Part shown: piece by piece, positions 26 through 63,701 of the stretch
How positions within the stretch are numbered: the first letter of the stretch is position 1
How the letters are laid out: every line of letters begins with the position of its first letter
Assembly: GCA_044344255.1 (NCBI GenBank)
Contig: JBIJDH010000004.1
Location: 224,001 to 288,000, forward strand
Length of the DNA: 64,000 nucleotides
Direction: 5' to 3'
From: Myxococcota bacterium
GTDB taxonomy: Bacteria > Myxococcota_A > UBA796 > UBA2385
The notes under the pieces: model-generated
The model's input: the letters and a program-made list of their open reading frames with translations, nothing else
What the model was told of the DNA's origin: nothing
The model's database searches: none
Made by a program: the position numbers and the translations under genes

Positions 26-2230
26 GTGGACGCCAGCGTGCTGGTGCGGGTCCGTGTCCCGCCCGGACCGCAGGCCGCCGCGAGCCGACGGCTCCTCCTG
101 ACCGCCTCGGTGGGCACGGTGGACGCCGTCACCCCCTCCGCTGACGGCTCCTTCGTCGCGCGATGGACGCCCCCTCCGAAGCCCGACCGTTCGCGGATCG
201 TGGTCTTCACGGCGGCCGACGCCGCGGCCCCCGACACCGCCGTGGGGGTGGGGCTCCTGCCGCTCGTGGTCAAACGATCGGTCACCGTCGACGCCCCGGC
301 GGGCAGCTCCAACCTGCTCGTCCTCGGCGATCGCAGCTACGGTCCGGTCCCGGCGTCCCCGGCGGGCACGGTGGCCTTCGACGTCGAGGTCAACCCCACC
401 GCGCCGAGCGCGACGCTGCGGAGCACGATCCAGGGCGCGACCACCGACAAGCCGGTCGATCTCGCCTACGGTGAGGCCCCCGCTTGGTCCTTCCTGCCCC
501 TGCCCGCCGTCGCTCTGGCCGATCCTTCCACCCCCTTTTTGGTCGGGTTGGCGGTCGTCGGGGCCGATGGGGGTCCTTGGAAGGGCTCGCTCCCCAGCCT
601 CACCGCCAACCAGGGACAGATCGGCCCGGTCACGGCCGGCGAGCTGGCCGGCGTCTACCGCGCGCTCTACACCCCGAGTCCGGCCCCGGGCCCCGTCACC
701 TTTGCCGCGAAGCTCGACAGCATGGAGCTGAGCCGCACGGTCGCGCTGGCGGCCCGCTTGCCGACGCTCTCGGTCACGACGACGCCCACCTCGCTCGAGC
801 CGGGTAAGAAGGAGGTGGTGATCACCGCCCTCCTCAAGGACGCCAATGGCACCTCCGTGCCCGGCGCGCCGCCCGACATCCTGGTCGACGGGCTCGAGAA
901 GGTGGGCAAGCCCATCGACAACAAAGACGGCACCTACCGCCTCAACACCAAGGTGAAGGCCTCGGCCGGGCAAGCCCTCGTGTTGGCCGAGCCGAACATG
1001 AAGGCCTCCGCGGAGGGGCCGGCGCGCCTCGTCGCCTGGACCGCCGACGCCTCCGTGGAGCCCGGCCATGTGGACTACCTCGTGGTGGCCGCGGTGGACC
1101 GCTTCGGGAACCCGATCGCCAACCTTCCGCTGAGCTTCTCGGTGCCGGTGGGGGACGGCAGTCTCAGCCCCTCCGGGAAGACCGACGGCAAGGGCCTCGC
1201 CTGGGTCGCATACACGGCGGGCAGCCGATTGGGGCCGGTGACGCTGCGGGTGCAGGGCGCGGGCCTGCAGGACGAGCTCGCGCTCTTCCAGGGTGCGGCG
1301 CCAGCCGGCCTCCTCCCCCCTGACGCCCTCGAGGCGCGCTGGCGCGCCGCGGTCGGGCTCGCCGTGCTGGACGGCCCGAAGGCTGCCGTGCCGGTGGCGG
1401 TGGCCGCCCCGGCTGGCTCCCCGTCGACCTCCGCGGCCGCGGCGCCGGTCGCGAGCGCGGCGCCGGTCACCTCGGCCGCGCCCGCCGCCGCCGCTGCGGC
1501 GACCTCGACGACGAAGGTCAAGGCGCCCAAGGCCCCGCGCGCCGCCTCGAGCGGCGACAAGGCTCCGACGCGGCTGATGCTCGGGCTCGCGACGATGCCG
1601 CGCACCTTCTCGATGACCGCCGAGGACGCGGCCGGCTCGGTGCCGCCCGAGGCGAGCTACTCCTCGGGTGACCTGTTTGGTGGTGACCCGTTCGGCGGCG
1701 CCGGGATTGACCTCCGGGCCGAGCTCGGCTTTAACGAGACCTGGGTGGCAGATGTCCGCGCGCGGCTGGGCGTCGAGTCGGTCGAGGCGGGCCACGACGA
1801 GCAGTCGATCAAGTCCTGGTCGGGGGCCGTGGGCGCCCGCTATCGGCGGGAGCTGACGGACGGGGTGCATTACTACGGCATCGGCCAGATCCACCGTATC
1901 TCCGCACCCTACTTTCAGTATGGGGACGAGCGGAAGGTGGTCGTGGACGTCCACCAGGCGAGCAAGGTCGGCCTGCGGGCGGGCGGCGGCCTGGAAGCGG
2001 CGATCGGGCCGGTCTTCGCCGAGCTGGAGGCCACCGAGACCTTGGTCCCCTTGCCCGCCGATGCGCACCTCGGACTCCTCCTCGGCGTGGCGGTCCAGAG
2101 CAACATGGCCGTGCACCTCGGGGTCGATCTTGACTGGCTGGCCATCCGCGAGACGGTGGACGAGGTCGACATCAAGCTCAAGTCAAAGGAGCAGGTGCTC
2201 TTCCTCGGCGGGACGCTCGCCTTCGATTGA
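26..2230 (+). CDS. Large surface/outer-membrane protein with Ig-like (invasin/Big_1-like) domains, an Ala/Pro linker and a probable C-terminal beta-barrel; probably 5'-truncated by the window edge
   Basis: The frame is open from the window start. Ig-like motifs (VVITALLKDANG, DNKDGTYR, AVDRFGNPI, TDGKGLA). The C-terminal ~220 aa show alternating beta-strand pattern and end in LAFD. Confidence 0.6.
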   Translation: MDASVLVRVRVPPGPQAAASRRLLLTASVGTVDAVTPSADGSFVARWTPPPKPDRSRIVVFTAADAAAPDTAVGVGLLPLVVKRSVTVDAPAGSSNLLVLGDRSYGPVPASPAGTVAFDVEVNPTAPSATLRSTIQGATTDKPVDLAYGEAPAWSFLPLPAVALADPSTPFLVGLAVVGADGGPWKGSLPSLTANQGQIGPVTAGELAGVYRALYTPSPAPGPVTFAAKLDSMELSRTVALAARLPTLSVTTTPTSLEPGKKEVVITALLKDANGTSVPGAPPDILVDGLEKVGKPIDNKDGTYRLNTKVKASAGQALVLAEPNMKASAEGPARLVAWTADASVEPGHVDYLVVAAVDRFGNPIANLPLSFSVPVGDGSLSPSGKTDGKGLAWVAYTAGSRLGPVTLRVQGAGLQDELALFQGAAPAGLLPPDALEARWRAAVGLAVLDGPKAAVPVAVAAPAGSPSTSAAAAPVASAAPVTSAAPAAAAAATSTTKVKAPKAPRAASSGDKAPTRLMLGLATMPRTFSMTAEDAAGSVPPEASYSSGDLFGGDPFGGAGIDLRAELGFNETWVADVRARLGVESVEAGHDEQSIKSWSGAVGARYRRELTDGVHYYGIGQIHRISAPYFQYGDERKVVVDVHQASKVGLRAGGGLEAAIGPVFAELEATETLVPLPADAHLGLLLGVAVQSNMAVHLGVDLDWLAIRETVDEVDIKLKSKEQVLFLGGTLAFD

Positions 2231-2340
2231 CCGGGGCGCCCTCGCCAGACCTGACCTGAAGTTGGCGAGCGCGGAAGATGTCCCGCTGCCGATCGTCAGT
2301 CGCTTTGGCTATACTCTTGCAGTCTTCCACGGAGCCTTCG

Positions 2341-3222
2341 ATGCGCCTTCTCCTCCTCGGCCTCCCCCTGTTCGTTGTCGCTTGCTCAGGCGGCAAGAGC
2401 TCCTCTGACCGTTCGAATGACCAGAGCACGAGCGGCGACGGGGGCGGCGGCGATTCGACCACCGACACCGACGGCGACGGTGTAACGGACAGCGACGAAG
2501 AGGCCGCCGGCACTGACCCTGCTGCCGCTGACTCCGACGCCGACGGGATCATGGATGGGGACGAGCTCGCGGGTGGCACGGATCCCCTCTCCGGTGACTC
2601 CGATGAAGACGGCTACCCCGACGGCGCGGAGGTCGCCGCTGGCTCCGATCCCAACGACGCCTCCAGCCTCCTCTACACCGGCGGCTGGCCTTACAACCCG
2701 AACAAGGACTCCATGACCGCCGGTGACCCGGAGGACATGGCCGCCGTGGACGGTGTGGTGCCGCGCTTCGTGTTCATGGACCAGTATGGCGACATGGTCG
2801 ACATCTATGACTTCGCCCAGCAGGGCAAGCCGATGATCATCGACCTCTCGGGCGTCTGGTGCTACTGGTGTAATGAGGCCGCCAAGCTCATCGAAGGGAG
2901 CCCCAGCGCGCTCGACGGATACGGCTTTGAGGGCATCCACGACGCCATTGTCAACGGTGACGTGTACTGGATCACCATCCTCGACTCCAATCGCTCCGGG
3001 GCCCCGGCCGCCGACGACACCGCCGAGAACTGGTTCAACCTCTACCCCTTTGAGCCCGTGCTGGTGCTGAGCGACGTGAACCAAGAGTCCACCGCCTGGA
3101 TCGCGCCCTCCGGCTACCCCACCATGATGTTCGTCGATGAGAACATGGTCATCACGAACTACAAGAAGGCCGACTACACCAAGGCGATCACCGCGGCGAT
3201 CAACTACTCCGAGTCGCTCTGA
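2341..3222 (+). CDS. Lipoprotein with Asp-rich Ca-binding (DxDxDG) repeats and a C-terminal thioredoxin-like domain
   Basis: Lipobox FVVAC after the ATG at 2341 (GGAG upstream). Repeats DTDGDG/DSDADG/DSDEDG. WCYWC CxxC motif and GYPT cis-Pro motif. Confidence 0.75.
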   Translation: MRLLLLGLPLFVVACSGGKSSSDRSNDQSTSGDGGGGDSTTDTDGDGVTDSDEEAAGTDPAAADSDADGIMDGDELAGGTDPLSGDSDEDGYPDGAEVAAGSDPNDASSLLYTGGWPYNPNKDSMTAGDPEDMAAVDGVVPRFVFMDQYGDMVDIYDFAQQGKPMIIDLSGVWCYWCNEAAKLIEGSPSALDGYGFEGIHDAIVNGDVYWITILDSNRSGAPAADDTAENWFNLYPFEPVLVLSDVNQESTAWIAPSGYPTMMFVDENMVITNYKKADYTKAITAAINYSESL

Positions 3223-4915: not shown

Positions 4916-5652
4916 GACTTCCTCTTGCCGAGCTTGCTGTAGCCGATGGTGATGGCCGCGTTCTGCTTGAGGAAGAAGCCCTGGGAGTCGGCGGTCTTGA
5001 CCCGCTTCTCTCGCAGGAGGTCGTCTCGGACCTGCACGCGGATGGTGCCGGTGTCGTGTACGAAGAAGCGCATCCCCACCCCGAGGCCGAGGGTGGGGGA
5101 GAAGGCCATCGCGTTGTCGGGCAAGATGGCCTGCTCGGCCGAGACGCCGAGGCCGCCGAGGCCGTAGATGTCGTAGTGGGCGATCTTCTTGCCGGCGAGG
5201 CTCATCTTGGCGTAGATCGGCGACCACTGGGCGTCGACGAGGAAGCTGCCGAGGAAGCGATAGGCGTCGGGCGTGATGCCGTAAGCGTCGCTCTCCAAGA
5301 TCTTGTAGTTGGCGTTCTTCAGGCCGTAGCCCCCGGTGAAGGAGCCTTCGAAGCCGAGCTGTTCGCTCTTGCTCCACATGCCGGTGAGCTGGAACACCGG
5401 CGTGGTGGTGTAGGTGTCGAAGGGCATCCAGCCGAGGTGGGCGCCGAGCTCCAGGCGGCCCGTCTTCGGGAAGAGCAGCTTCTGCACGACGGTGATGTCC
5501 TGGTTCTTCAGGACGCCGATGTCGAGCGGGCTGCTCACCGCCGGCTTGTCCGCGCTCGGCGGCGGAATATCGTCGTCACTCTGGGCGAAGGCCGCGCGGG
5601 AGGCCAGGAGGGCCATGCCGGTCGCGAGGAGGGCGCGCAACATCATCGACAC
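4912..5652 (-). CDS. Outer-membrane beta-barrel domain protein (myxobacterial GltA/GltB/GltH-like family)
   Basis: Signal peptide; VVQKLLFPKTGRLEL and WSPIYAKMSL...HYDIYGLGGLG motifs. The start may be 5646 or 5643. Confidence 0.7.
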   Translation of the reverse strand: MSMMLRALLATGMALLASRAAFAQSDDDIPPPSADKPAVSSPLDIGVLKNQDITVVQKLLFPKTGRLELGAHLGWMPFDTYTTTPVFQLTGMWSKSEQLGFEGSFTGGYGLKNANYKILESDAYGITPDAYRFLGSFLVDAQWSPIYAKMSLAGKKIAHYDIYGLGGLGVSAEQAILPDNAMAFSPTLGLGVGMRFFVHDTGTIRVQVRDDLLREKRVKTADSQGFFLKQNAAITIGYSKLGKRKS

Positions 5653-5708
5653 ACCACGGAAGACAGGGGGACAAACAGGGAAGGGCGAGAGACGGGGCGC
5701 ACGCGGGG

Positions 5709-7112
5709 CTAAAAGGGCAGCTCCCGCGGGTTTCCGGACAGCGGCCGGTAGTAGATGCGGACGTCGGCGTTGTAGCCGGGCACCTGATCGGGCCAGAAGA
5801 CCACCGCGTTCTGGGCGGAGTCGTAGCTCCAGCCGTCGGCGTAGATGGGCTCGGTGGAGGGGTCTTCAGAGATCGCATCGGCGTTCTCGATGGTCGCCGA
5901 AGGGATCTCCTCCCCGTCGATCCACACCTGGATGGTGCTGGTGTCGGGCACGCTCTGGAGCTGGAACACCGTCTGCAGGTTGTTCAGCAGGTCGCCGAGC
6001 TGCTCGAGGTAGGTGGCGAAGTCGGAGAGCTCGCAGGCGTCGTCGGAGGCGCCGGGGGCGACGATGTTCTGGTAGAAGCCGCCTGTCACGGTGGCGGCGT
6101 CTTGCAGGCGCTCGACGCTCCAGGTGGGGACGGCGTCGGCGCACTTCACGCCGCCGGTGGCCGGATCGAGGTAGGGCCCGATGGCCACGATCTTGATCGG
6201 GCGCTCGAACTCGGAGAGGAGGTCGAGGTAGGGCTGGGGGTCCGCCTCGCCCTGCGAGAGGCGGCGCGAGTTGTCTCCTTCATCGCTGACGATCACCACC
6301 ACGACCGTGCTGTCGTCGCGGAGGAAGCCGTCGTTGGTGTACTCAGGCGGCACGATGAAGGGGGAGAGGGGGTCATAGCAGCCCTCGGGGGGCTCCTCGA
6401 CCGAGCGGCACAAGGCGAGGTACGCCGCCTCGAGCGGCTCCTCCTGGCCGGAGCCGCTGTTGCCCTGCCAGCCGTCGATACCGCACTCGCAGTCGAGGTA
6501 CTCGAGGGAGATGAGGTCGTCGGGGCCGAGGGGGGTGCCGCAGATGTAGGCGGAATCCGAGGTGAGCGCGCTCTCGTTCCAGCTCGCCGCCTCACAGAGC
6601 AGGTTGCGGCGGAAGTCTCCCTCCACATCGTCTCCGCCGCGGGCCACGACGGTGGGATCGCCGAGCAGCCGCCCGGCCTCACCGGGGTCTACGCCGTCGG
6701 AGTCACCGAAGCCGGCGTAGTCCACCGAGGTGGACGTGATCGCGAGGTGGTAGTCGATGATGCTGCCGCGGTCGCTCGTGTAGGTCACGTAATTGGCGAC
6801 GGCGTCTTCGAGGCTGCCGGTGGGGGGCTCGGAGCCCCGCAGCGTCTCGATGAACGTATTGAAATTGAGCCCGAGCGAGGCTGTCTCCTCTACCATCGAC
6901 GGGGAGTTGTCGATGACGAAGAGGATGTCGGCCTGGTTCGAGTACGAGACCTGCTCGTATCCGGCGACGTTGAACATCGCGTACCGGTTGCAGCCGGGCA
7001 GGGCGCCGAGCGCGGCGATCGCCGCGAGGCCGGCGAAGCGGGCGGTGACCCGGTCTGCGCGGTGGAGCAAGGCAGGGAAGGCAGAACGTACGGGCTGGTG
7101 AAGGGCCACCAT
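5709..7112 (-). CDS. VWA-domain lipoprotein
   Basis: Lipobox-like LPGC. Intact MIDAS in DILFVIDNSPSM, plus VVVIVSDEGD. Cys-rich inserts. Start uncertain. Confidence 0.7.
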   Translation of the reverse strand: MVALHQPVRSAFPALLHRADRVTARFAGLAAIAALGALPGCNRYAMFNVAGYEQVSYSNQADILFVIDNSPSMVEETASLGLNFNTFIETLRGSEPPTGSLEDAVANYVTYTSDRGSIIDYHLAITSTSVDYAGFGDSDGVDPGEAGRLLGDPTVVARGGDDVEGDFRRNLLCEAASWNESALTSDSAYICGTPLGPDDLISLEYLDCECGIDGWQGNSGSGQEEPLEAAYLALCRSVEEPPEGCYDPLSPFIVPPEYTNDGFLRDDSTVVVVIVSDEGDNSRRLSQGEADPQPYLDLLSEFERPIKIVAIGPYLDPATGGVKCADAVPTWSVERLQDAATVTGGFYQNIVAPGASDDACELSDFATYLEQLGDLLNNLQTVFQLQSVPDTSTIQVWIDGEEIPSATIENADAISEDPSTEPIYADGWSYDSAQNAVVFWPDQVPGYNADVRIYYRPLSGNPRELPF

Positions 7113-57218: not shown

Positions 57219-59156
57219 ATGCTCGACGCTGATCTCGACCTCCTCCCCGCGGTGCTGCGCGCCTATGGGCCGAGCCGATGCTCCCTGGAGCGCCTCGGCC
57301 GGGAGCCCGCGCTGGCGGACGGCCCCGGTCGCGGCCTCGAGGGCGCGGTGGAGCGGCATGGTGTGGGCCCGCTCGTGGCGGCCCTGGTCCCCGGCGATCG
57401 CCTCGTCCTCGCCGACGAGGGGATTGAGCTCGAGCTCGTCCGCGAGGCGGACGGCGCGCTGCTCCGCGCGCGGTGGTTCGACGGCCCGGCCTACGAGGAG
57501 CGGCTGCCCGCCGGCGTCTCCAGCCTGGAGCGGCTGTTGGGCCTCCCCGTCGCCGAGCCCGCACCGGCCGGCGCCGTCGCGCGCCCCGTGGTGTCGCACC
57601 CTCCCCCGCTCGCGCCGCGGGCGTCCCCCACGAGCCTCCCCCTCGAGGGCGCCGCGCTGGTCGAGGCCCTCCATGATCCCGCCCGCCCGCTGTGGGCGCT
57701 GGGCGGCAGGGTCTACCCCTCTCCGGTAGACGGCGGCAGCCCCATCCCCGTCGTGACGGCGGGCGCCCTCGGCTCTCGCGACTTCTGCGCCGCGCACGGC
57801 CTCCGCGCCCCCTACATCGCCGGCGCGATGGCGGGGGGCATCGCCTCGGTGGAGCTCGTCGTGGCGATGGGCAAGGCCGGCCTCGTCGGCTTCTTCGGCG
57901 CGGGTGGGCTAGACCTCCCCGCGGTCGCCGCCGCGGTGGACCGCATCCAGGCCGCCCTCGGCCCCACGGCCCCCGCCGGCTTCAACCTGCTCCACAACCC
58001 GGCCGAGCCCTCCGTCGAGGAGGCGACCGTCGATCTGTACCTGTCGCGCCGCTGCCGAATGGTCTCGGCCAGCGCCTACATGGGCCTCACCCCCGCGGTC
58101 GTGCGCTACCGCCTGAGCGGGCTCCACCGCGGGCCGAGCGGCGAGCTCGTCGTCCCCAACAAGGTCTTCGCCAAGGTGAGCCGGCTCGAGGTGGCGGAGC
58201 GCTTCATGCGGCCGGCCCCGAAGGCGATGATCGCCGAGCTCCTCGCTGCCGGGCGCATCAGCACCGCCGAGGCCGAGCTCGCCCCGCTCGTGCCCCTCGC
58301 CGAGGACATCACCGCCGAGGCCGACTCCGGCGGTCACACCGACCACCGGCCCCTCGTCGTGCTGCTGCCCGCCTTCCTCCGCCTGCGGGACCGGGTCTCC
58401 GCCGAGGAGGGTTACGCCGCGCGCGGCCTCTCGCTCCGGGTGGGCGGCGCCGGCGGCCTGGGTGACCCTGCCTCTGTTCACGCCGCCTTCGCGATGGGCG
58501 CCGACTACGTGCTGACCGGCTCGGTGAACCAGGCCTGCGTCGAGGCGGGGACGAGCGCGGTCGCCAAGGCGATGGTCGCCGCCTCTGGCATCGCCGACTG
58601 CACCACCGGCCCGGCCCCCGACATGTTCGAGATCGGGGCCCACGTGCAGGTCCTCGGGGCCGGCACGATGTACGCCCAGCGCGCGCAGCGGCTCTACGAC
58701 CTCTATCGGCGCCACCGCTCCCTCGAGGAGATCTCCGAAGAGGACCGGAAGAAGGTGGAGTCCACCATCCTCCGCCGCAGCTTCGACGAGGTCTGGGCCG
58801 ACACCCGCGCCTACTGGGCCGCCCGCGACGCCCGCGAGGTGGAGCGCGCCGAGGCCGATCCCCACCACCGCATGGCCCTCGTCTTCCGCTGGTACCTCGG
58901 CATGACCAGCCGCTGGGCCCGCATCGGCGACGCCGAGCGGAAGCGCGACTTCCAGATCTGGTGCGGCCCGGCCGCCGGTCTGTTCAACGACTGGGTGAAG
59001 GGCAGCGCGCTCGAGCCCGTGGAGGGCCGCACGGTGGTCGGCGTGGCCGACGCCCTGCTCACCGGTGCCGCCGCCCTCCGCCGCGTGGAGGTGGCGCGCG
59101 CCCTCGGCGTGGCCCTGCCGCCGGGCGCGTCCTCACCGAGGCCTCGCCTCGGCTGA
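57219..59156 (+). CDS. pfaD: PfaD-family FMN enoyl reductase (PUFA/polyketide synthesis) with an N-terminal extension
   Basis: YIAGAMAGGIAS, FAKVSR, AEADSGGHTD, TGSVNQ, PAPDMFE, FRWYLG, DFQIWCGPA. Confidence 0.9.
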   Translation: MLDADLDLLPAVLRAYGPSRCSLERLGREPALADGPGRGLEGAVERHGVGPLVAALVPGDRLVLADEGIELELVREADGALLRARWFDGPAYEERLPAGVSSLERLLGLPVAEPAPAGAVARPVVSHPPPLAPRASPTSLPLEGAALVEALHDPARPLWALGGRVYPSPVDGGSPIPVVTAGALGSRDFCAAHGLRAPYIAGAMAGGIASVELVVAMGKAGLVGFFGAGGLDLPAVAAAVDRIQAALGPTAPAGFNLLHNPAEPSVEEATVDLYLSRRCRMVSASAYMGLTPAVVRYRLSGLHRGPSGELVVPNKVFAKVSRLEVAERFMRPAPKAMIAELLAAGRISTAEAELAPLVPLAEDITAEADSGGHTDHRPLVVLLPAFLRLRDRVSAEEGYAARGLSLRVGGAGGLGDPASVHAAFAMGADYVLTGSVNQACVEAGTSAVAKAMVAASGIADCTTGPAPDMFEIGAHVQVLGAGTMYAQRAQRLYDLYRRHRSLEEISEEDRKKVESTILRRSFDEVWADTRAYWAARDAREVERAEADPHHRMALVFRWYLGMTSRWARIGDAERKRDFQIWCGPAAGLFNDWVKGSALEPVEGRTVVGVADALLTGAAALRRVEVARALGVALPPGASSPRPRLG

Positions 59157-59372
59157 GCCTTGCGTCTTCGCTCTTGCCCGGAGCCGCCCCGGAGCCCGTG
59201 CTCGGGGTCCGCCGGGCAGTGCTCAACTTTCCAATCCGATCCGACATAACGGCGCATTGTGGCGCGGGAGTCCGGTGTTGGCGACACGTCGTGCCGAAAG
59301 TATGAACGCTTGGTCAGCCCTCGTCTCCTCGCTCGTCGAGTGGAGCGCGTTATACTGCCGACGGAGTTACCC

Positions 59373-60239
59373 ATGCCCTCCTTCGTTCCAGATTCCTCTC
59401 TCAAGCACACCTTCACTGGGATCGTCCCAGACAAAAGTGAGTACGAAAATGAGGATTTCTCAGGGAGTGCTTTCGTTGACGTTGGCGCCAAGAAGTGCGT
59501 TTTCAAGTCGTGCAAGTTCAAGTTCTGCACGTTCGAGAGGTCGTACTTCCGTGGTGCGCTTTTCGAAGACTGTGATTTCCAGGGAGCTCGATTTCGAGAT
59601 AGTAACTTCCGAGATGCAATATTCAAGGGTAATTGCGTGTTCTATTATGCTACGTTTGTGGGAACTTTGATCGAATCAGAGCAAATGCTCACGAAGTTGC
59701 CACCGTATCCCAACCTCAAGTTGGAGTTCGCGAGGAGTCTCCGTGCGAACTTCGCGGGACTTGGGATGCATGTTGATGCACAAAGTTTTTTTGACGTGGA
59801 ATTAGCCTCCGAATACGAGCACTTCTCAAAGATTGTCGGCTCGGGCGAGACATACTACACTACCCGTTATCCGACCGTTCGTGAGCGCTTTCCCTACTGG
59901 GTGAAACTCGGTTTGCATCGCCTTGAGGCGTTCGTTTGGGGCCACGGCGCGAGTCCACTACTTCTCGCGCGTGCGACTTTGTTCGGACTCGCAGTTCTGT
60001 CCCTCGTTTTCATGTTTCTGGCGCCGGGCTACGGTGGAAGGGAATTCTCCTCGGACCCGTTCGGCGCGGTAGGTGACAGCGTCTACTACACCTTGCTCAC
60101 GTTCTTCAGTGCTGATGACCAGGGTTTTCGACCGGTCTCGGCGGTGACGAAGGGGTTCACGGTGCTCACGCTGCTTTATGGCTACTTGACGCTGGGGTTG
60201 TTCGTGACCGCTATGTATCGGCGTCTGGCTAGGATTTAG
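59373..60239 (+). CDS. Pentapeptide-repeat protein fused to a C-terminal ion-channel-like membrane domain (HalA-like effector candidate)
   Basis: Pentapeptide run (CKFKF CTFER SYFRG ALFED CDFQG ARFRD SNFRD AIFKG); WGHG.SP then TM, pore-helix-like SVYYTLLTFFS, and a final TM. GGAG precedes ATG 59373. Confidence 0.8.
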   Translation: MPSFVPDSSLKHTFTGIVPDKSEYENEDFSGSAFVDVGAKKCVFKSCKFKFCTFERSYFRGALFEDCDFQGARFRDSNFRDAIFKGNCVFYYATFVGTLIESEQMLTKLPPYPNLKLEFARSLRANFAGLGMHVDAQSFFDVELASEYEHFSKIVGSGETYYTTRYPTVRERFPYWVKLGLHRLEAFVWGHGASPLLLARATLFGLAVLSLVFMFLAPGYGGREFSSDPFGAVGDSVYYTLLTFFSADDQGFRPVSAVTKGFTVLTLLYGYLTLGLFVTAMYRRLARI

Positions 60240-60242
60240 CCC

Positions 60243-60971
60243 TTGCCTGTTCTAACCAACATAGTATGTGCTAGGCTCTTTGGTTCGAGGGTTCGGGGGG
60301 ACCACGATGACGTTAGCGATCACGACGTGCTTGTCGTGCTTGAGGACAAGTTGAATCCCGATGCGCTCGCCCGGATTGAGGACGAGGTGAGCCTGGAGTT
60401 GGGAGTACGGGTGGATGTATCCTTCTACTCCGAGACCCACCTTCGAAAGCTGTTTGAAGGTGGGCACCTTTTCGCGTGGCACCTCTGGCGTGAATCAGTG
60501 CCGCTTGCCGGTCGGATCCCAGACCTTATTGAGATAATCGGTCCGCCGGAAGCGAACACCGATGCGCGGCAGGAGATTCAAGACTTGCTTCTGCTTCTGT
60601 GTTCAATTCCTTCGAAGCGTCTGAATAGTCGGACTTTGGTGTACGATGCCGGTATTCTGTACGTGATAATTCGCAATGTGGGAACGAGCGCTACTTGGTT
60701 CTTTGGTCCATCTCGGCTCGACTTCGGCCGGTACTCTCCCTGGGCACTGAATCGTCTCGGCGGGCCGCCGCCCCCGATCGACGAGGAAGGTTATCATAGG
60801 CTTCTGCATGCCCGCAAGGCCGGAATGGCCGGGTTGCCGGCTCCGGCGATTTCGTTGGAGGAGTTGCGGCGGTGGTACGACCAGACCGCCGCTTGGATAG
60901 GAGCGGTATGCCGGCAAATCGACAGTTCACTCTCCGACGGCGAGATTGAGGCCTTCCTTACGAAGCTGTAG
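60243..60971 (+). CDS. Pol-beta-superfamily nucleotidyltransferase with a C-terminal helical domain (HalB-like candidate)
   Basis: LFGSRVRGD...SDHDVLVV (GS and DxD), third acidic residue in VDVSFY, GHLFAWHLWRES; starts 3 nt after the channel gene. Confidence 0.85.
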   Translation: MPVLTNIVCARLFGSRVRGDHDDVSDHDVLVVLEDKLNPDALARIEDEVSLELGVRVDVSFYSETHLRKLFEGGHLFAWHLWRESVPLAGRIPDLIEIIGPPEANTDARQEIQDLLLLLCSIPSKRLNSRTLVYDAGILYVIIRNVGTSATWFFGPSRLDFGRYSPWALNRLGGPPPPIDEEGYHRLLHARKAGMAGLPAPAISLEELRRWYDQTAAWIGAVCRQIDSSLSDGEIEAFLTKL

Positions 60972-61283
60972 GAGGTACTCTGCGAGTAGGGCAGCCCCAT
61001 CGAGGGCATCCACTGCCGGAGCTGGGTCGAAGACTGTTCGGCTTCTGTCGGCGATGGTTCCTGCGACATTGGACAGGCGGACGAGCGTCTCTGCGGCTCG
61101 TACCACTGCAAATGGAGCACCCTTGCCGCCCCGAGTGTCGATCCAGCGCACGATGGCCGGTTGACTTAGTCCAGCTAACTGCTCACCGTCTGCGAATGCA
61201 ATATTGGTAACCGCAATCACATCACGCTCGAAGGCGACGCGCAGGCGGAACCTGCGCCGGCGCTCGGTTTCATTGGATTCCAC
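60927..61283 (-). CDS. Small hypothetical protein (~118 aa)
   Basis: GTG 61283 overlaps the end of the upstream nuclease-like gene; the 3' end overlaps the NTase gene by 45 nt. Confidence 0.5.
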   Translation of the reverse strand: MESNETERRRRFRLRVAFERDVIAVTNIAFADGEQLAGLSQPAIVRWIDTRGGKGAPFAVVRAAETLVRLSNVAGTIADRSRTVFDPAPAVDALDGAALLAEYLLQLRKEGLNLAVGE

Positions 61284-62106
61284 TGATGTTCTCCGGAAGA
61301 GTGGCCTGGGCCTCAGAGGCGGCACGCAGCAGGGTATCCAGTGCAGCGTTCTCGTGCTCTGCGGCCACGATGCTGTGGAATGCGAGGGTCGTAAGGGCTC
61401 CCAACCGCGCCTCGTAAATCGACAGGTTTGTTATGGCTACGGGAGCACCAGTGTGAGAGATTCCGAATCCCCGAGCCAACAGTCCGTAGCTGGCCAACTG
61501 AAGGACTGTCTGCCCGTAATAGGCATTTCGTCCAGTCTTTACTTCGACGATCGCTTCATCCAGGGCGAGATCAGCATCCGCCCCGCCTACGGCGCGTGAG
61601 CCTATTCCAAACGTTGGGTTCAGAACGAGTCTCATTCTTGGCTTGAACTTCGACCATGGAACTACCGCGTAGAGCGCGCGCAACTCTTCAGTCGAATCGC
61701 ATTGGACGGTGAGCCTCGTCGGCCCCCTTCCTCGGCCTCTGTAGAATGCATCGAAGTCGGCTAGCGCAATACAGGCTCCGGCCTGAGCGGGCGTGATCGT
61801 TCCGGGCCTGAGTGTGCTCATAATACTCAGTGCGCCGAAGAGGCTCGCCTTCGCTTGCCTTTTGTTCATTGCCTTCTCGCCTGACACCAGCCGATCGACC
61901 AGTTCTGCATCCGACTCGGCGGCGAGCGCCCACCCAGCACCGGAGAGACCCCATCGGAGCGCGTAGTCGAACGCTGTTCCCACACGGGACCCGTAGGGCA
62001 CCAGGTCTTGCGGTGAACCTCGGGACTCTTCCATGGGGGGATACCGGACGAAGGGTGCCATCGCCGCAACCACCTTCGGTAAACGCAGAAGTTCTGTAAG
62101 GCTCAC
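61270..62106 (-). CDS. PD-(D/E)XK nuclease-like protein
   Basis: VGTAFDY, LNPTFG, GGADADLALDEAIVEVKT, QLASY (RecB/Cas4-like QxxxY). Confidence 0.7.
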   Translation of the reverse strand: MSLTELLRLPKVVAAMAPFVRYPPMEESRGSPQDLVPYGSRVGTAFDYALRWGLSGAGWALAAESDAELVDRLVSGEKAMNKRQAKASLFGALSIMSTLRPGTITPAQAGACIALADFDAFYRGRGRGPTRLTVQCDSTEELRALYAVVPWSKFKPRMRLVLNPTFGIGSRAVGGADADLALDEAIVEVKTGRNAYYGQTVLQLASYGLLARGFGISHTGAPVAITNLSIYEARLGALTTLAFHSIVAAEHENAALDTLLRAASEAQATLPENISGIQ

Positions 62107-62900
62107 GCGTGTACATCGACCTCAATGGTCTTCCGGGGGGCAATCGGAAGCTGGCGCTTGCGAAGTAGGGCCTCAAGGTCTGTCCCGGTGAGCCAGGAGC
62201 GCAGGGCCTTCTGGCCGACCGACTCGTCGAGATACTCCTGCCCTCCTTCCTTCAAGCGAAGGGCGACTGCGATATCGTGGTCATGGGTCTCCCGGAGCAG
62301 ACGGAAGCTGGCGTCGCCGGGATCGACGACGAGATCCATGTTCCGCCAACTCTCGTCGAAGTGTTGCTCGGTACCGTAATGGTCCAGCCCGGGTGTGATG
62401 TGGTAGCCGAAGTTGTTCTCGGCGCCGAGCGAATGGGTCTTGTGAATCGTGAGCGAGGCACCGTCTCCCGTGCCTTGGTTGCTCTCGTAGAGCTGACTCG
62501 TCAGGTTGACGACAGTGGAATCCTCTGCGCACCAGTCGCGCCGACGGGCCAGAATGCCTGGAAGGTGCTTGGGCTTGGCCTCTTCGAGGGCGCAGCAGCG
62601 CGCGGCCAACTCCTGCATAGGCGCGTCGGACTCGGCTTCGAACCACTGGTAGAAGGCATTCCGAGCGACCCTCGTCTCGGTGTCCCCCTTCGTCAGGGCG
62701 CAAACCGCCGATGCGAGGCGGCCGCACTCCTCGGTCCCCCCGGCGGAGATCAGGGCCCAGACCCACTCCAGTGGATCCAGCTTCCGTTCCCGCTTCAGCG
62801 CTCCCAGGCGCCTCGCTGTCTCCATCACCGAGGCTGCCGGCAGCATCTCGTTCAACTTCGCCCGGAATTGCTCGGCGTCCATCTGCCACCTCCTCAACAC
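62103..62900 (-). pseudogene. Truncated, decayed IS4-family transposase
   Basis: ARRLGALKRERKLDP N-terminus, AFYQWF, first catalytic EDSTVV. The second DxGY motif has decayed to DPGD, and the ORF ends before the catalytic Glu. Confidence 0.7.
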
Positions 62901-63005
62901 GACATGGAGAGCTACCCTGAAAAGAAGGGGCGATCAACCACGCGAGTCGGAGCGGGCGTAAGACTCGTACCCAGCCTGACCGAAAGGGATCGATCTACGC
63001 CGAGG

Positions 63006-63701
63006 ATGAGCCTTTGCGGACTACGATTCACCTTCACCTCCAGCTACGACCGTGGGGTGTACGTCCTCGGCGACGCGGGCGGCACCACGATCGAGGGCAA
63101 CGTCTTCGACCGGATCGGCAACGGCGCGGTGAAATTCGCCGGGCACACCGAGGAGCCCGACCCCGAGCTCAGCCTCGCCGGCCTCCACGACGGCGCCATC
63201 CGCGACAACCGCTTCCTCCAGATGCGCAACGGCGCGATGCTGATGTCGGGCGTCCGCAACACGATCCTCGGCAACGAGGTGGTCGCTTATGACGCCTCCG
63301 CCGATCCCACCGGCTGGTACCACCCCTTTCAGCGGCCCGGCTACCACTACCTGGACGAGTTCCTCATCACCGACGCCGGGCAGGCCGGGCAGGCCGGGAG
63401 GGCCAACCACATCTGGGGCAACACCTTCGAAGACAACACGACCACTGACGGGGACTTCGAGCTGTTCCTCCAGCAGCGGCCCAACGTGGCCGACCGCAGG
63501 ATCTCCGCCAAACTCGTGACGGGCGCGGGACAGACGGTGTACTTCCGCCACCTCGTCCCCTGCGCCGAGAGCGCCGCGCCCTGCTTGGCCTACACACCCT
63601 CCATCCGCGTGGATGCTGGCGCGACGCTCGTCTTTGGCGCCCCCGCCGACTGTGCAGACTGCTACCCGTCGGACACCGGCTACCTCACCGAGCTGCCCTG
63701 A
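63006..63701 (+). pseudogene. Probable 5'-truncated right-handed beta-helix protein at the island's right junction
   Basis: Host-like GC3 resumes near 63030; TIEGNVF, IRDNRF, NTILGNEV and NHIWGNTF repeats begin without a signal peptide or N-terminal cap. Confidence 0.5.

Follow-up and report, generated by a model that had tools for sequence, protein, structure and literature searches.

Genes and setting of the locus

Within the window, the whole 64,000-nucleotide stretch of DNA that was analyzed, a low-GC island at 59230..63000 (borders approximate; GC content of about 0.51 to 0.65, rising above 0.70 again beyond about 63500) carries the genes described here. Two of them are plus-strand genes that, as a preliminary description of this DNA had stated, are separated by 3 nt and have a lower GC content than their surroundings: gene A (59373..60239; 0.527) and gene B (60243..60971; 0.572), compared with 0.712 genome-wide. 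Gene A encodes a 288-amino-acid protein with a pentapeptide beta-helix and a two-transmembrane (two-TM) part, by its sequence a probable channel effector, and gene B, which begins with TTG, encodes a 242-amino-acid protein with a polymerase beta (Pol-beta) nucleotidyltransferase (NTase) core and a HEPN-like helical domain. The same description treated A and B as a two-gene unit and missed a third gene, C, on the minus strand (60927..61283), which encodes a 118-amino-acid, four-helix protein of no known family. C starts from a GTG at 61283 with GGAG 7 nt upstream, and it overlaps the last 45 nt of B. Since C lies on the opposite strand in the window, its expression is not coupled to that of A and B. 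The start of C is in turn overlapped for 14 nt by the stop of gene D (61270..62106, minus strand; 278 amino acids), which encodes a PD-(D/E)xK-like protein, and directly upstream of D is a truncated IS4-family transposase (62103..62900, minus strand) that matches positions 2 to 219 of the 332 in profile NF033592 (65.3 bits versus a cut-off of 115).

Contigs from the public runs of two other studies were identical to the window across the A-B junction (contig X3), the B-C junction (X3 and X16), and the C-D junction (X16), so the layout of the locus is not an assembly error. The upstream neighbor of the island is a PfaD/FabD-like gene (57219-59156), to which the genome has four matches at E values up to 1e-50. 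A short repeat marks the left edge of the island (59176-59207); copies occur on other contigs, often near contig ends, and public contigs break or branch at this point. Among the public contigs examined there was no clean empty site for the island. No repeats beyond chance were present within it, and a promoter scan of the locus returned 0 sites versus 0.9 expected. Adjoining the IS4 remnant, at about 63000-63701 on the plus strand, is the 3' part of an open frame with no clear start, labeled by eye as a beta-helix (pectin-lyase-like) fragment.

Gene D has a weak PADLOC match (RTasPDDEXK; E value of 1.4e-4). Its family has no Pfam match, is recognizable from the motifs GTAFDY and NPTFG..S..VGGAD.D, and occurs in 14 of 182 genomes of the class; searches for C in the 13 others of these genomes gave no match, and no A, B, or C was found within the fetched stretch around D in 9 of 9 loci (from L111 to L119). 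The system has D beside it in only 2 of 75 related loci, L037 and L030, the latter with the same D-C coupling. Because D mostly occurs without C and adjoins so few of the related loci, it is probably a passenger that provides the transcript for C, not a core part. A role for D as a core processing nuclease is unlikely for the same reasons. In L030, a small protein with a HELGH zinc-protease-like motif (5218-5769, minus strand) precedes D, and a 460-amino-acid HEAT-like repeat protein (1112-2494, plus strand) precedes A, with a transposase fragment further left (all labeled by eye).

A third core gene and its distribution

C is the third core gene of the system. It follows B in 68 of 75 loci related through B (13 genomes, 4 viral contigs, and 58 metagenome contigs), and the remaining seven contigs end no more than 94 bases past the B match; about 53 B+C loci, window included, are nonredundant at roughly 80%. 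In 67 loci C is codirectional with B and abuts or overlaps its stop. The inverted layout of the window recurs in L030, the closest fetched relative (B, 52% identical; C, identical at 56 of 118 residues), where C is coupled to a D-like gene by the same 14-nt overlap. A is upstream of B in 69 of the 75 loci; four of the other six have 131 or fewer bases upstream, and two (L070 and L080) have room but no A, with B cut at its N terminus. Four B-C fusion proteins were also found, and the three included in a quick tree fall in two separate branches.

Searches in the opposite direction gave the same association. A reverse search from C, covering 397 scored genomes of the sampled family, returned four new matches, of which three were A-B-C in order and the fourth was a C-terminal fragment (E value of 1e-4), and in another family the one genome of 401 with a match had it at an already known locus. 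A search for longer C-containing proteins found none among 8000 candidates, an uninformative blank given that four fusions are known. Beside the HalB, HalB-like, and L090-type NTases discussed below (9 loci), the C profile found nothing above 10.6 bits, compared with 72.8 bits for a positive control (L092), and no C was found beside HalB in L088 or L091.

The C protein resembles little in current databases. C itself has no Pfam match, no Pfam or PADLOC family was common to more than one of 14 members, there was no NCBIfam match, no PDB sequence matched below an E value of 0.016, and the ESM Atlas gave no usable match (values of 0.87 or less). The model of C (four helices; pLDDT, 83.3) had no Foldseek match at an E value of 0.001, and VIA-align returned only generic helical bundles (best Z score, 8.0), with no standout HEPN match; these negative results together do not establish a new fold. 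HHalign gave no support for C having split off from HalB or HalA, with a probability of 0.4 for both. The most constant feature is a serine in the motif D-x-S-R-x-V-F (D77-x-S79-R-x-V-F83 in the numbering of alignment A5), which is kept in 61 of 61 copies, comprising 52 of 52 in that alignment and 9 of 9 further copies. In L122 to L124 the motif reads NKSQ, with the serine kept although the neighboring Asp and Arg change. In the window this residue is Ser81 of the 118-amino-acid protein (codon 61041..61043, minus strand; position 79 in alignment A5) and is a candidate acceptor hydroxyl; in the model it ends a helix, and a loop of low confidence (83 to 89) comes next. C has no conserved tyrosine, and 31 of 52 C proteins have no tyrosine at all.

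The distribution of A-B-C is patchy and mobile. The B family comprises 156 clusters at 50% identity (E values up to 1e-30) in Bacteroidota, Proteobacteria, Acidobacteriota, and others, while within the class of the window's genome C was found in 1 of 182 genomes, its own, with at most 25 candidates scored per genome. Six plasmids and four viral contigs carry B-family genes; for example, a 6.9-kb plasmid (NC_021210.1) encodes A-B-C and little else than mobilization and toxin-antitoxin genes. Strong matches to other defense systems (type IV CBASS, a DISARM-type methylase, PDC-S06, a class II pAgo, a DpdJ/BrxH-type helicase, and HEC-03) were found beside 6 of 23 loci and none beside 17, in a scan of 147 of 179 open reading frames that had no control set. 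In L002 (2888-6858) the three genes directly adjoin a type IV CBASS operon, and in L010 (2784-6910) they are preceded by a class II pAgo locus and a TIR-domain gene.

Relationship of B and A to the Hailong proteins

The preliminary description had placed the locus near Hailong, the system of HalA and HalB reportedly described by Tan et al. in 2025 and a model for defense by an inhibitory DNA signal, in which the self-priming tyrosine is central. In the available text of two reports, the poly-dA that HalB makes is primed by a tyrosine of HalB itself, HalA is kept shut by short oligo-dA, and a phage exonuclease opens it (PMC13434031, PMC13276650), with the two genes forming an operon (PMC13434031). 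References for comparison were PDB entries 9DBH, 9DBI, 9DBJ, and 9NYI and the NCBIfam models NF051894 (HalA; cut-off of 250 bits) and NF051895 (HalB; cut-off of 190 bits).

B is an NTase with the fold of HalB. The motif GS...DxD...D reported earlier is present (G14, S15, D26, D28, and D58), and PF01909 and PF18765 both match above their cut-offs. Foldseek searches with an AlphaFold2 model of B (pLDDT, 93.3) placed HalB chains at all of ranks 1 to 10, and VIA-align also ranked HalB first (Z score, 14.0; rmsd, 3.5; 181 residues aligned), followed by a HEPN domain (4nqf; Z score, 12.3). HalB was likewise the best PDB match of a profile built from 140 B proteins, with the motif G[DH]LFA[IW]HL..E in common and an HHalign value of 98.5% over 144 columns. 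Structural identity to HalB is 15 to 19%. Residues G14, S15, D26, and D28 are kept in 139 of the 140 proteins; at the third carboxylate position (D58), 62 of them have Asp or Glu and 51 have Ser, and this variability means that the chemistry may differ from that of HalB.

The relationship to Hailong proposed in the preliminary description therefore holds as far as the fold of B is concerned, and so does its claim of divergence: scores against the family models fell far below the cut-offs for both A (27.9 of 250 bits, from the repeats only; best of six relatives, 42.3) and B (37.4 of 190 bits; best of 23 further family members, 53.9). The priming tyrosine of HalB sits at the terminal position of the NTase C terminus. 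The structural match to B spans only residues 1 to 186 of HalB, and residues 187 to 227, the last 41 and including this tyrosine, have no counterpart. B ends in EIEAFLTKL, with its last tyrosine at residue 212, 30 before the end, and the lack of a terminal tyrosine, first noticed in this one protein, is a trait of the whole family: tyrosine is the last residue in 2 of 140 B proteins and is among the last three in 9, versus 15 expected by chance. A true HalB was found in 1 of 401 genomes (271.6 bits; 227 amino acids, ending in Tyr), and all 7 HalB-like proteins examined have tyrosine within the last two residues. A quick tree of 51 rows places 43 B proteins (three B-C fusions and 40 members of the set of 140) on one side of a branch with support of 91 and seven HalB-like proteins on another with support of 98; this tree has no outside root, and the branches meeting in it are long. 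Canonical Hailong is ruled out for A-B-C by the NCBIfam cut-offs, the missing tail, and the third gene.

Gene A has the architecture described earlier, a beta-helix repeat protein with a channel-like membrane domain. Residues 22 to 87 are pentapeptide repeats (PF13576; 58.2 bits, cut-off of 27), and hydrophobic segments lie at 196 to 214 (TM1) and 262 to 280 (TM2), with a weaker one between them. The layout runs from a cytosolic beta-helix (about 22 to 100) through a helical linker and a WGHG motif to TM1, a likely pore helix with a degenerate loop, and TM2. The linker has conserved residues, mostly basic or aromatic (R124, N126, E143, Y161, Y162, K/R165, and Y166), among which R124, Y161, Y162, K165, and Y166 are the most conserved of A outside the repeats; by their character they could bind nucleic acid. 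The part of A after the repeats scored 20.6 bits against the Ion_trans_2-positive GYGD channel of another locus, L090, a score reached by none of 287 reported shuffles (HHalign: 165 columns; probability, 27.9; E value, 6e-4). Against HalA it scored 2.2 bits, which 15 of 287 shuffles equaled, and neither HHalign nor shuffle-tested alignment detected homology between A and HalA beyond the beta-helix. A is thus likely to be a two-TM channel with a degenerate filter, while these comparisons gave no evidence of a HalA-like DNA-binding crown.

The pore loop of A does read TFFSADDQGF, between TM1 and TM2, as stated in the preliminary description, but it fails as a difference from Hailong. HalA itself lacks GYGD, with the HalA beside the above-cut-off HalB (genome G464) reading EIFFLFGY and not TxGYGD, and the loop sequence varies across 41 A proteins, only one of which has G[YF]G; the loop was rejected as a mark of novelty.

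Proposed mechanism, alternatives, and known systems

Binding between B and C is supported by a predicted complex, which scored 0.80, compared with 0.15 for the best of three controls; 116 of 157 solved complexes, but just 2 of 215 mismatched pairs, reach the mark used for such scores. Model runs agreed on at least 88% of contacts, and the pLDDT of the partner was at least 77. In the model, residues 3 to 44 of C lie on the helical domain of B (107 to 138 and 190 to 200), an interface that would explain the conserved cluster F10, E17, R18, and G36 of C. Interface residues of C are more conserved than the rest (0.51 versus 0.38), and those of B are about equally so (0.44 versus 0.43). The cluster containing the serine motif is absent from the listed B-C interface residues. 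No similar complex turned up in searches.

C occurs in the very clade that is without the tyrosine tail, and in the fusion proteins it occupies the position that the tail would have. This suggests, with moderate probability, that A, B, and C are one three-part antiphage guard, a sister of Hailong, in which B and C form a signal-making holoenzyme and A is the guarded channel. The first two helices of C would dock on the helical domain of B, and C would stand in for the C-terminal tail of HalB with its priming tyrosine. This holoenzyme would be constantly active. Its nucleotide product, most likely a single-stranded oligonucleotide that begins on the invariant serine of C, would bind the cytosolic part of A and hold the channel shut. 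When a phage enzyme destroys the product, or when B-C activity is lost, A would open, the membrane would depolarize, and the infected cell would stop growing. The toxicity of the channel, the inhibitory sense of the product, and phage nucleases as the trigger are all inferred from Hailong, which A-B-C may resemble in its working, and an antiphage function is supported by genomic context and analogy.

How the product is started is a separate question, and here the proposal is tentative. Terminal proteins of phi29 and adenovirus are primers for their polymerases. C could be a dedicated primer protein of this kind, with a Pol-beta NTase building a guard oligonucleotide on the serine of a separate subunit; this is possible but falls short of probable, and Ser81 as the specific priming residue is a candidate held with similar, perhaps slightly greater, confidence. 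The signal could then stay tethered to C, a protein-DNA conjugate serving as the lock, and might be something other than oligo-dA. Thr/Ser38 of C is a less likely acceptor, as it belongs to the interface with B, and 2 of 52 proteins have Asn there.

The same guard could operate with C as a structural, regulatory, or phage-sensing subunit, B priming itself at an internal tyrosine or making a free oligonucleotide, and the D-x-S-R motif of C binding A, the product, or a phage protein. This version is unlikely, even though B has suitable residues: Y62, a Leu in HalB, is found in 139 of 140 B proteins, Y140 and Y184 are also common, and position 105 is Tyr in 127 of 140 (Asn in the B of the window). 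The serine of C, being at a helix end, could be a capping residue, but its retention in every copy of C, including those with NKSQ, argues against this version of the guard, as does the way in which the presence of C and the absence of the tyrosine tail go together across two clades.

Rather improbable is a type VII-like toxin-antitoxin system with C, or A, as a protein to which B attaches a single nucleotide or a few; the toxic partner would then be held inactive by that modified protein rather than by a DNA chain. An invariant hydroxyl on a bound partner would fit a modification site, the helical domain of B resembles HEPN (the match to 4nqf), and the core of B weakly matches the MntA model NF047752; that match reaches 30.6 bits against a cut-off of 60, however, C has no standout HEPN match, and HalB is the best match of B by profile and by structure, down to the common G[DH]LFA[IW]HL..E motif.

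An NTase with a membrane effector is a common CBASS layout, and C binds B in the model. C might hold B inactive or sense phage, after which B would make a signal that opens A, an activation in the CBASS sense that is slightly more improbable again: PADLOC gave no cyclase match for B at an E value of 0.1, compared with 378.6 bits for the CBASS cyclase neighboring A-B-C in L002, and HalB, the closest relative, negatively regulates its channel according to the available text of PMC13434031. A nondefense role, as a mobile addiction module or a nucleotide-regulated channel for stress or plasmid maintenance, would fit the small-plasmid copies and the majority of loci with no recognized defense neighbor but is very improbable given the type IV CBASS, class II pAgo, PDC-S06, HEC-03, and DISARM-type methylase neighbors and a similar pair in a P4 hotspot, pentapeptide-channel plus NTase-HEPN, that is reported, in the text available, to be antiviral (PMC13586616).

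Priming from the serine of C, if true, would be a mechanism new to bacterial immune signals, and C as primer would define a distinct three-gene defense family of at least 156 clusters missed by current HalA/HalB, Pfam, and PADLOC models. The sister clade offers a sharp test of whether priming can be split between two proteins, with one named residue; the natural B-C fusions suit structural work, and the small plasmid-borne copy suits cloning. In literature searches that covered few subscription papers, no listed title or abstract opening described a three-gene form of Hailong, and no paper from 2025 onward combined Hailong with "HalC"; the supplements of the original Hailong report could hold the clade.

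Further NTases related to HalB occur in other pairings. In L090 (988-2948, minus strand), a 330-amino-acid NTase (56 bits to the HalB model) follows a pentapeptide channel whose TTLGYGD filter is intact (Ion_trans_2; 49 bits) and has no C; this NTase-channel pair is a third clade. HalB-like NTases with tyrosine in the last two residues lie directly behind a WYL-domain gene in L089 (1462-3122), L093, L094, and L095, with no HalA in the fetched stretch, a pairing that by analogy may join a putative single-stranded-DNA maker to a WYL reader. HalB-like genes ending in Tyr also occur on small plasmids in L096 and L097, near a divergent WYL-type gene or small open reading frames (DUF1883 in L096), with no channel gene seen. 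This suggests that HalB-fold enzymes form a wider toolkit, paired with HalA, an A-type channel, a GYGD channel, or WYL proteins.

Known systems share parts of this arrangement. PADLOC gave B no match to the CD-NTases (cGAS/DncV-like) of CBASS. Type VII MntA-HepT likewise has an MNT-type NTase core, a HEPN-like helical domain, and a small helical partner, whose binding is predicted here, but in B the NTase and HEPN-like parts are in one 242-amino-acid chain instead of a stand-alone small MNT protein, the His after conserved Arg144 is missing, the score is below the MntA cut-off, and a membrane protein belongs to the unit. In DRT10 (PMC12632851) and DRT1 (PMC13275509), defense systems that may include a membrane partner, DNA synthesis starts from a conserved serine; as far as the available text of these reports goes, they are reverse transcriptases that prime from their own chain, unlike a Pol-beta NTase whose candidate serine is on a separate subunit. 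A two-gene P4-satellite system called Hailong, with pentapeptide and IRK channel parts in one protein and NTase and HEPN-like parts in the other, is reported to be antiviral and, compared by description alone, has the same domain pairing, but the available text describes two proteins (PMC13586616).

The closest comparison is with Hailong itself. In both, a channel gene directly precedes an NTase gene, the NTase has the HalB fold with the motifs G[DH]LFA[IW]HL..E, RNIA/RTIA, and FSR/FSP in common, and the channel protein carries a pentapeptide beta-helix ahead of its two-TM membrane part. Unlike Hailong, A-B-C has a third gene, present at 68 of the 75 loci and also known from the four B-C fusion proteins; its B lacks the HalB C-terminal tail and terminal tyrosine and falls in a separate branch of the unrooted quick tree; and its A is about 70 amino acids shorter than HalA, with no detectable homology outside the repeats. 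With no close match to a canonical HalB bearing the priming tyrosine, the claim of a variant made in the preliminary description stands and can be given a more definite form: A-B-C is not HalA/HalB but a large sister clade of Hailong with an unannotated obligate subunit, C.
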